DNA of 64,000 nucleotides, taken from NCBI RefSeq assembly GCF_030013595.1, contig NZ_CP122768.1; one strand, written 5' to 3'. The translations under genes were made by a program, and so were the position numbers. Source of the stretch: Escherichia coli. Its GTDB lineage: Bacteria > Pseudomonadota > Gammaproteobacteria > Enterobacterales > Enterobacteriaceae. The notes beneath the pieces are model-generated. The model was not told the origin of the DNA and did no database searches. It worked only from the letters and a program-made list of their open reading frames with translations. Below are positions 32,454 to 32,763 of the stretch, one piece after another. Numbering within the stretch: position 1 is the first letter of the stretch; each line of letters starts with the position of its first letter.

Positions 32454-32528
32454 TGGAGCGGGTAGCGGGAATCGAACCCGCATCATCAGCTTGGAAGGCT
32501 GAGGTAATAGCCATTATACGATACCCGC
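32454..32528 (-). tRNA. tRNA-Gly (anticodon UCC)
   Basis: Hand-folded cloverleaf: 7-bp acceptor gcgggta/tacccgc, anticodon arm tcagc-CTTCCAA-gctga, T-arm gcggg-ttcgatt-cccgc, encoded CCA. Confidence 0.6.
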
Positions 32529-32531
32529 ATA

Positions 32532-32607
32532 TGGTGCCGACTACCGGAATCGAACTGGTGACCTACTGATTACAAGTCAGTTGCTCTACCTACTGAGCTA
32601 AGTCGGC
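32532..32607 (-). tRNA. tRNA-Thr (anticodon UGU)
   Basis: Acceptor gccgact/agtcggc, D-arm agctcagtaggtagagc, anticodon arm actga-CTTGTAA-tcagt, GTTCGATTCC T-loop, CCA. Confidence 0.65.
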
Positions 32608-32609
32608 AC

Positions 32610-32686
32610 TGGACCGCCACCGGGGACTCGAACCTCGCACACTCAACTTAAAGGGTTGACGCTCTTTCCCGATGAGCTAGTGGCGG
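32610..32686 (-). tRNA. tRNA with nominal anticodon UUU (Lys) but atypical anticodon loop (C at position 33)
   Basis: Acceptor ccgccac/gtggcgg, GGTTCGAGTCC T-loop, anticodon arm tcaac-CCTTTAA-gttga; one mismatch in the T-stem. Confidence 0.45.
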
Positions 32687-32687
32687 T

Positions 32688-32763
32688 TGGTGGCCCTTGC
32701 TGGATTTGAACCAGCGACCTGGCGATTATGAGTCGCTCGCTCTCACCACTGAGCTAAAGGGCC
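32688..32763 (-). tRNA. tRNA-Ile2 (anticodon CAU, ileX/ileZ-like)
   Basis: Sequence closely resembles E. coli minor tRNA-Ile (GGCCC.TTAGCTCAGTGGT.AGAGC…GACTCATAATCGC…GGTTCAA.TCC…GGGCCACCA). Confidence 0.7.

Follow-up and report, generated by a model that had tools for sequence, protein, structure and literature searches.

We analyzed a 64,000-nucleotide stretch of DNA from Escherichia coli (contig NZ_CP122768.1 of RefSeq assembly GCF_030013595.1; hereafter the window) that contains a lambdoid prophage with four tandem tRNA genes, tRNA1 to tRNA4, in its late regulatory region. By sequence comparison, this cassette is a mosaic of an ileZ gene of Shiga toxin (Stx) phages, a remodeled argN gene, a copy of the host thrU gene and a near-copy of the host glyT gene. 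The remodeled gene, tRNA2, is annotated as tRNA-Lys; judged by alignment, it is an argN homolog in which the anticodon arm has been rewritten on an arginine-type body. The explanation that we favor, and to which we give an even chance of being correct, is that the cassette is conserved and self-promoted, that its Ile2, Thr and Gly tRNAs act as supply boosters, and that tRNA2 acts as a nuclease-insensitive decoder of Lys codons. We found no description of an argN-to-UUU switch with C33, of an Ile-Lys-Thr-Gly array of this kind or of ileZ and argN in the literature that we searched, the coverage of which was incomplete; the array itself is not rare, and its genes have been annotated before.

A four-tRNA array with a rewritten argN gene

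ARAGORN found exactly four tRNA genes in the window, arranged head to tail on the minus strand: tRNA1 (32763-32688; anticodon CAT, that is CAU), tRNA2 (32686-32610; TTT, UUU), tRNA3 (32607-32532; TGT, UGU) and tRNA4 (32528-32454; TCC, UCC). All four fit the tRNA cloverleaf model Rfam RF00005 above its gathering score of 29, with 72.5, 44.6, 73.8 and 65.6 bits, respectively (E-values 3e-06 to 3e-14), and all four encode the CCA end, with spacers of 1, 2 and 3 nt between the genes. Unconstrained minimum free energy folding returned no cloverleaves for the four tRNAs, as is usual for tRNAs. An earlier note on this DNA had described four tandem tRNAs with these anticodons, lying between a Q-like gene and the lysis genes and reading codons that end in A. 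ARAGORN and Rfam agree with it on coordinates and anticodons, and the cognate codons of all four do end in A; the note had left the minus strand unmentioned. For the UUU tRNA it had the anticodon right but missed both the derivation from argN and the base at position 33.

The evidence for that derivation comes from comparison with the ileZ-argN genes of Stx phages, which the segment comprising the promoter, ileZ and tRNA2 matches at 91% by BLAST. tRNA2 and argN (anticodon UCG) are identical at 66 of 77 positions, and 8 of the 11 mismatches are clustered in nt 30-47; the adjoining promoter plus ileZ differs from the Stx phage in only about 3 of 111 columns. Relative to argN, the anticodon has changed from UCG to UUU, position 33 from U to C, G30:C40 to A30:U40 by a compensatory double change, and U27·G43 to U27:A43, while two variable-loop bases are altered and two G·U pairs of the acceptor stem have become G:C. 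The anticodon loop (32648..32654, minus strand) now reads 5'-C32 C33 U34 U35 U36 A37 A38-3', with C33 at 32653 and the anticodon at 32652-32650. All four stems of tRNA2 are intact.

The C at position 33 departs from the U33 that makes the U-turn and that is present in tRNAs 1, 3 and 4, in 57 of 57 distinct tRNAs from diverse bacterial comparison loci and in 42 of 42 other distinct tRNAs from phage loci. The E. coli TsaBCDE enzymes are unable to add N6-threonylcarbamoyladenosine (t6A) to a U33C tRNA (PMC8887486), and A37 of tRNA2 is therefore probably unmodified.

The body of tRNA2 is of the arginine type, because its D-arm motif TAGCTCATCNGGANAGAGCGTC, which includes A20, belonged to a tRNA-Arg in 116 of 120 matches from diverse bacteria and because alignment to host lysT gave little similarity. 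This relaxed scan retrieved unrelated tRNA-Arg genes, for example from Marinobacter and Treponema, and served only to show the type of the D-arm. Recognition by lysyl-tRNA synthetase involves the discriminator base, which is A73 in E. coli tRNA-Lys. tRNA2 shares the U34-U35-U36 anticodon with E. coli tRNA-Lys but has neither A73 nor a Lys-type body, carrying instead U73 and C1:G72; these two features recur in argN, as does an A51·C63 mismatch that is the one nonstandard pair of the T-stem. A search for the tRNA2 scaffold in one genome per species returned no match. Nor was any other tRNA body found that could have donated the UUU anticodon arm: of six matches to the arm, five lay outside tRNAs and one was the same gene.

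The other three genes have closer relatives. tRNA1 is 100% identical to ileZ of the Stx2a phage F349 and agrees with K-12 ileX at 68 of 76 positions; metU is far off, with many mismatches. ARAGORN prints it as Met from its CAT anticodon, and the label given by the Prokaryotic Genome Annotation Pipeline (PGAP) in RefSeq genomes is tRNA-Ile. The sequence combines a CAU anticodon with an ileX-like, non-Met body and the pairs C4:G69 and C5:G68, which are determinants for TilS. On these features, assignment of tRNA1 as a tRNA-Ile2, presumed to be lysidine-modified and to decode AUA, is sound. tRNA3, a tRNA-Thr(UGU), is identical to K-12 thrU at 76 of 76 positions, and tRNA4, a tRNA-Gly(UCC), agrees with K-12 glyT at 73 of 75, the two differences pairing with each other as a single compensatory acceptor-stem change (C6:G to U6:A). 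By this comparison both are captured host genes.

A 76-residue open reading frame (ORF; 32284-32514, minus strand) overlaps tRNA-Gly, and its first 21 residues match phrog_30175, a family of unknown function; it probably belongs to a spurious ORF family seeded by annotation across the tRNA region.

Codon usage supports compensation by three of the four tRNAs

We compared about 7,800 codons of late prophage genes and about 4,300 codons of early genes, from greedily selected ORFs, with about 6,300 codons of flanking host genes. ATA, ACA and GGA, all rare codons in the flanking host genes, are over-represented about 2- to 5-fold in the prophage, more strongly in early than in late genes. The odds ratio (OR) for ATA was 2.7 in late genes (p = 2e-4; rank 3 of 59 by late enrichment) and 5.1 in early genes; for ACA it was 1.8 (p = 6e-3; rank 9 of 59) and 4.0, and for GGA 2.3 (p = 1e-5; rank 6 of 59) and 3.75. 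GGG and ACG, which are read by the same U34 tRNAs, were also enriched in late genes. The corresponding values for AAA were 0.67 in late genes (rank 39 of 59) and 1.02 in early genes, and AAA makes up 78% of the Lys codons in the flanking host genes (31.8 per 1000).

The earlier note had proposed that each of the four tRNAs reads a rare or limiting codon and supplements the supply for late genes. Codon compensation, in the sense of a codon that is rare in the host and enriched in the phage, is supported for the Ile2, Thr and Gly tRNAs because ATA, ACA and GGA are so enriched, and it is rejected for the Lys tRNA because AAA, the major host Lys codon, is neither rare nor limiting and is not enriched.

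One alternative to our favored explanation is that all four tRNAs simply add decoding capacity during the late burst, the arginine body and C33 of tRNA2 being accidents of history. We regard this as unlikely, albeit a serious contender. It would account for the significant enrichment of three of the four cognate codons and for the Thr and Gly tRNAs being simple copies of host genes, and late genes do use Lys codons at about 47 per 1000, with a mild enrichment of AAG, which the UUU tRNA also reads (OR 1.5, p = 0.036). It fits tRNA2 less well, since most host Lys codons are AAA and tRNA-Lys(UUU) genes are plentiful in the host (five in the lysT cluster of K-12 alone). Moreover, the simple route to more tRNA-Lys would have been capture of a host lys gene, as happened with thrU and glyT, whereas what is found is a tRNA-Arg remodeled by clustered changes; and C33, which should lower the quality of decoding and block t6A37, would be odd in a pure capacity booster.

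Distribution and conservation of the array

The whole array, counted where at least 80% of the query was present, occurs in 600 of 5,426 complete E. coli genomes, in which it is annotated as Ile/Lys/Thr/Gly; the closest matches are porcine enterotoxigenic E. coli (ETEC) strains. An exact search for the anticodon arm found the UUU form in 771 of the 5,426 genomes, the argN (UCG) form in 241 and a UGU form in one, and we put the tRNA2 allele in about 11-14% of complete E. coli genomes. Among the IMG/VR matches listed (120 loci), 97 have the order Ile2-Lys-Thr-Gly, 11 have Ile2-Lys-Arg(UCU) and 6 have ileZ-argN-argO; C33 is kept in all 114 UUU copies among these listed matches, and position 32 varies.

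Over 80 loci that carry the Ile-Lys-Thr-Gly array, the mean minor-allele fraction was 0.001-0.009 in the four tRNAs and 0.17 in the flanks, which are mosaic, and conservation stops directly after tRNA-Gly. The value for tRNA2 (0.009) is close to that for tRNA-Gly (0.0075) and about 20-fold below the flanks, and its stem polymorphisms are all C-to-U changes opposite G, which preserve pairing.

These data bear on the possibility that tRNA2 is a nonfunctional or decaying relic of argN, a pseudo-tRNA beside functional ileZ, thrU and glyT genes. At 44.6 bits its covariance-model score is the lowest of the array, the others reaching 65-74; all other tRNAs sampled have U33 in place of its C33; and it carries the A·C mismatch in the T-stem and U73. 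A U8C haplotype is present in 17 of the 118 tRNA2 copies tallied among the IMG/VR matches listed, and a 1-nt deletion in the D-stem (TAGC-CATC) is fixed in the 11 of 11 Ile-Lys-Arg(UCU) arrays listed, where PGAP makes no call; some lineages therefore let tRNA2 decay, and the single UGU copy may be read in the same way. Nevertheless, we consider a relic unlikely, although it too is a serious contender. The four stems are intact, the G30:C40 pair was replaced in a compensatory manner, two G·U pairs of argN were converted to G:C, and the polymorphism of tRNA2 is as low as that of tRNA-Gly, with changes that keep the stems paired. The T-stem mismatch, C1:G72 and U73 are common to argN, and about 600 genomes have an intact copy.

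Two sets of variants were seen alongside. The UUU tRNA with the deleted D-stem occurs in PPompW-type prophages (locus L003, 2632-2707; locus L251, 585-660), and in the RefSeq genome of strain E2865 the UUU tRNA of the Ile-Lys-Arg(UCU) array is unannotated, so that annotation is inconsistent across genomes. E. coli CE0026a (NZ_CP119003.1; locus L004, 1615-1691) has an Arg-bodied tRNA that keeps C33 and has the anticodon UGU (loop CCTGTAA), called tRNA-Thr by PGAP. By sequence this is a natural one-step Lys-to-Thr anticodon switch on an arginine body; the idea that it represents a family of resistant Thr tRNAs was rejected, as it is a singleton (1 of 5,426 genomes).

Nuclease target sites in the cassette

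The Toprim tRNase AriB of the PARIS defense system cuts at U36-A-A-U39-C40|A41; U39A abolishes cleavage, A41C and U16C impair it, and the tRNA-Lys of phage T5 evades AriB via such changes (PMC12409363; PMC11464382). Its prime targets are the Lys(UUU) and Thr(UGU) tRNAs (PMC12409363). P2-OLD, the effector of P2-lambda interference, makes a lethal cut in thrU at paired CNG motifs of the anticodon stem (28-30 and 40-42); extra host thrU gives little or no rescue, whereas rescue is obtained with phage Thr alleles in which the motifs are altered (PMC12445682).

tRNA2 has the UUU anticodon of a prime AriB target, which is also a target of PrrC. At the AriB site, however, it reads U36-A-A-G39-U40-U41, against U39-C40-A41 in the host tRNA, and it has C16 where the host has U16. 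At the P2-OLD motif positions argN has CAG/CUG and tRNA2 has CAA/UUG, without a paired CNG, because of the compensatory change from G30:C40 to A30:U40. C33 sits at the PrrC cleavage junction. The three middle pairs of the tRNA2 anticodon stem (C28-A-A30/U40-U-G42) are also the strand-swapped image of those in K-12 lysT (U28-U-G30/C40-A-A42), which would place the C|A step at which AriB and OLD cut on the opposite strand; this may be a coincidence.

The Thr tRNA presents the opposite case. Being identical to thrU, it retains the UAAUC|A site and the CUG/CAG motif, has no resistance substitutions and cannot be a resistant allele. For tRNA4, a near-identical copy of glyT, we identified no nuclease that targets it. 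The suggestion in the earlier note that the array might confer resistance to anticodon nucleases thus narrows to one gene: resistance is plausible, going by the target-site sequences, for the UUU tRNA only, fails for Thr and finds no support for Gly.

It is for the same reasons improbable that the whole array serves against defense, with each tRNA replacing a host tRNA destroyed by a nuclease (Lys-UUU and Thr-UGU by PARIS, Thr-UGU by P2-OLD). The pairing of Lys(UUU) with Thr(UGU) is exactly that of the two prime AriB targets, in lambda interference it is the attack of P2-OLD on tRNA-Thr(UGU) that is lethal, and lambdoid phages are natural victims of P2-OLD. Yet the Thr tRNA is 100% thrU with both target motifs, and extra host thrU barely protects from P2-OLD. 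The only anticodon-stem sites of tRNA-Thr that vary at all, G42 and U43, differ in just 2 of 80 copies each, and Gly and Ile2 are not reported as targets in the nuclease literature that we consulted.

Promoter and terminator candidates

A consensus scan found a sigma-70-like promoter, TTGCAA-17 nt-TATTAT (32773..32801, minus strand; 9 of 12 matches). Its -10 element lies upstream of tRNA1, stopping 10 nt short of the gene, and the GC-rich discriminator CCTGCGCCC comes next. Both hexamers are at least 95% conserved over the 80 array loci and are also present in the Stx phage. From this sequence we infer a candidate promoter of the cassette. Directly upstream of the -35 hexamer, at 32808-32832 on the minus strand, there are two copies of a direct repeat, GGTGATTTTT, with starts 15 nt apart, which could be an UP-like or regulator-binding element. 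A second promoter-like site found by the consensus scan alone, TTGCAA-17-TATATT (32962..32990, minus strand), overlaps the 3' end of Q and is a candidate late promoter of the PR' type.

In the noncoding gap between tRNA-Gly and the holin gene there are three hairpins resembling intrinsic terminators (32351-32337, 32191-32172 and 32149-32132, minus strand), and a fourth lies at 32036-32021 on the same strand; the scan for such sites returned 6, against 1.7 expected from shuffles. Together the hairpins form a candidate tR'-like barrier downstream of the tRNAs. The ORF at 31987-32259, which overlaps this region, has no PHROG match. Because the cassette probably has its own sigma-70 promoter and appears to be positioned upstream of tR'-like terminators, it would not need read-through by Q.

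Prophage context

PHROGs place the array between the late antiterminator Q and the lysis genes, confirming the location given in the earlier note. Q (32974-33669, minus strand) matches phrog_304 (E = 1.7e-108) and is called antitermination protein Q by PGAP in near-identical loci. On the other side, the lysis module (30958..32027, minus strand) has matches to phrog_198, phrog_217 and phrog_465 and comprises, according to PHROGs and the PGAP annotation of the ETEC1730 locus, a holin gene (31602-32027, with its likely start near 31994), a second holin gene (31338-31574) and an endolysin gene (30958-31341).

The prophage, of about 41 kb (7400-48600), appears to lie inside the potABCD operon (flanks 5412-7395 and 48687-50524): ORFs of the size of potA and potB end at 7395, and potC and potD, assigned by alignment to the annotated ETEC1730 locus, start at 48687, next to the integrase gene (47402-48520). 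It joins a lambdoid regulatory and lysis region to structural genes for a contractile tail (sheath). In its early region there is a type I toxin-antitoxin locus of the hok/sok type (36109-36433, minus strand), in which a sok antitoxin RNA (36262-36433; 108 bits in Rfam) adjoins a 51-residue Hok-like ORF (36109-36264).

The tail genes are relevant to a further proposal, namely that tRNA-Lys, with tRNA-Gly, tunes -1 frameshifting in the tail-assembly-chaperone gene, a C33 tRNA without t6A being prone to slip on A-rich sites. The lambda G/GT frameshift site, G-GGA-AAG, is read by Gly and Lys tRNA species, and in the ETEC1730 prophage, which has an identical cassette, the tail-chaperone gene has an A7G run at its end (32416-32423 of that locus). 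However, the slippery site of the chaperone gene in the window is T-TTT-TTG, read by Phe and Leu tRNAs (13198-13204, minus strand, at the end of the ORF 13162-13470), and the cassette occurs with different tail modules. Frameshift tuning is thus largely rejected for the window and is highly improbable overall. Frameshift sites of the tail chaperone do differ among carriers of the cassette, with T-TTT-TTG here and A7G in the lambda-like ETEC1730 prophage.

Finally, tRNA-dependent lysogeny, in which phage tRNAs compensate for a host tRNA gene broken by integration or are relics of such an arrangement, is known for a mycobacteriophage tRNA-Lys(UUU) (PMC10865867), but we rejected it here as extremely improbable, since the attachment site contains no tRNA gene: the prophage sits between potB and potC, the window has no other tRNA gene, the four tRNAs are internal to the prophage beside Q, and E. 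coli has many Lys tRNA genes.

Discussion

Our results are most readily accommodated by a model in which the four tRNAs do not share a single role. The cassette would be a derivative of the ileZ-argN-argO cluster of Stx phages, carried by a lambdoid E. coli prophage in its late regulatory region. Transcription would yield a single precursor in which the tRNAs are closely spaced, and it would probably start at a sigma-70 promoter belonging to the cassette, ahead of the tR'-like terminators. The Ile2 tRNA (AUA), the thrU copy (ACA) and the glyT near-copy (GGA and GGG) would raise the supply of scarce decoders of NNA codons. In this model tRNA2 would not be a rare-codon helper; the anticodon arm of an argN body would have been remodeled to read Lys codons, and the same remodeling would have brought in C33 and removed the stem sequences recognized by the Toprim tRNases AriB and P2-OLD. 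C33 would in addition prevent t6A modification of A37 and change the junction cut by PrrC. The role of tRNA2 would then be that of a Lys decoder that survives host or rival-phage nucleases that deplete tRNA-Lys(UUU), working like the tRNA-Lys of phage T5 on a different scaffold. For tRNA2, expression, charging with Lys, the lack of t6A37 and nuclease resistance are all inferred from its sequence. The more specific claim, that a temperate lambdoid lineage turned argN into a nuclease-proof Lys decoder by acquiring a UUU anticodon, flipping one stem pair and acquiring C33, is one that we advance tentatively, as possible but doubtful.

Several observations weigh against the model. For the supply boosters, the most enriched codons are AGA and AGG, for which the cassette has no tRNA, ATA codons are few in the largest late structural genes, and the case for codon supplementation is only correlative. 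For tRNA2, the differences at the nuclease sites need no selection, because they follow automatically from an arginine body, and AriB also uses distal determinants (PMC12409363). PADLOC, run on ten prophage proteins (nine early-region or accessory proteins and the late ORF 7623-8195), found no tRNA-targeting or other clear defense system among them, only weak or helix-turn-helix-type matches. tRNA2 is also a non-ideal tRNA, with its low Rfam score, C1:G72, U73 and A51·C63 mismatch, and C33 may impair decoding; the U8C haplotype and the D-stem deletion are signs of decay elsewhere in the family. Furthermore, the copies are nearly identical, and C33 may therefore be shared through recent common ancestry and not because of selection.

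For 25 years, the tRNA clusters of lambdoid and Stx phages have been interpreted as an aid to the decoding of rare codons, whereas recent work indicates that the tRNAs of virulent phages serve survival of tRNA-cutting immunity (PARIS, retrons, P2-OLD and PrrC). One locus here separates the two ideas: three tRNAs, two of them host copies, act in this interpretation as codon or dosage helpers, and the fourth is not explained so and carries the kinds of change that confer nuclease resistance elsewhere. If the model is correct, temperate prophages in about one-eighth of E. coli genomes would carry counter-defense tRNAs, made by switching tRNA identity and not by mutating the cognate tRNA, and alloacceptor anticodon switching would be a natural route to such tRNAs. 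If expressed from its own promoter in lysogens, tRNA2 could give them tolerance to defenses or toxins that deplete tRNA-Lys. It would also provide a natural elongator tRNA with C33 for the study of decoding and t6A dependence. Should the model not hold, the locus would be no more than an ordinary tRNA cassette that annotation already records.

Comparison with known systems

The closest known system is the ileZ-argN-argO cluster of Stx phages (933W type; Stx2a_F349, AP012530), which occupies the same site, after Q and before the late and lysis genes. The two share the promoter-proximal sequence, an ileZ in first place that is 100% identical and the body of the second gene (66 of 77 positions), and all members of both decode codons that end in A. 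The earlier note stated that the sets differ, and alignment bears this out: the second gene has the anticodon UCG there and UUU, C33 and a remodeled stem here, argO (UCU) is replaced by copies of host thrU and glyT, and stx genes are absent downstream. The UUU arm is about three times as common as the argN arm among complete E. coli genomes (771 versus 241).

The last two genes resemble the host thrU-tyrU-glyT-thrT operon, tRNA3 being thrU and tRNA4 being glyT save for one pair. The cassette differs in lacking tyrU and thrT, in the spacing of its Thr and Gly genes, which are 3 nt apart, and in being under a candidate phage promoter.

With respect to nucleases, the nearest parallel is the T5 tRNA-Lys(UUU), which neutralizes PARIS and, like tRNA2, departs from the host tRNA in the anticodon stem at 39-41 and in the D-loop at 16. 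The T5 tRNA is a bona fide Lys-type molecule with few substitutions in a virulent phage, whereas tRNA2 has an arginine body and C33, resides in a temperate prophage and has a resistance that is predicted. The phage tRNA-Thr(UGU) alleles that rescue P2-OLD toxicity are altered, in contrast to the Thr(UGU) tRNA of the cassette, which has no resistance substitutions.

Lastly, tRNA2 resembles cases of tRNA gene recruitment by alloacceptor shift. Saks, Sampson and Abelson (Science, 1998) reportedly replaced the essential tRNA-Thr(UGU) of E. coli with a tRNA-Arg(UCU) mutated to UGU. An arginine body with a non-Arg anticodon is common to both, and the CE0026a singleton even has UGU. tRNA2 is, however, a natural and widespread phage allele, in which position 33, the pairs 30:40 and 27:43 and the variable loop have changed along with the anticodon.

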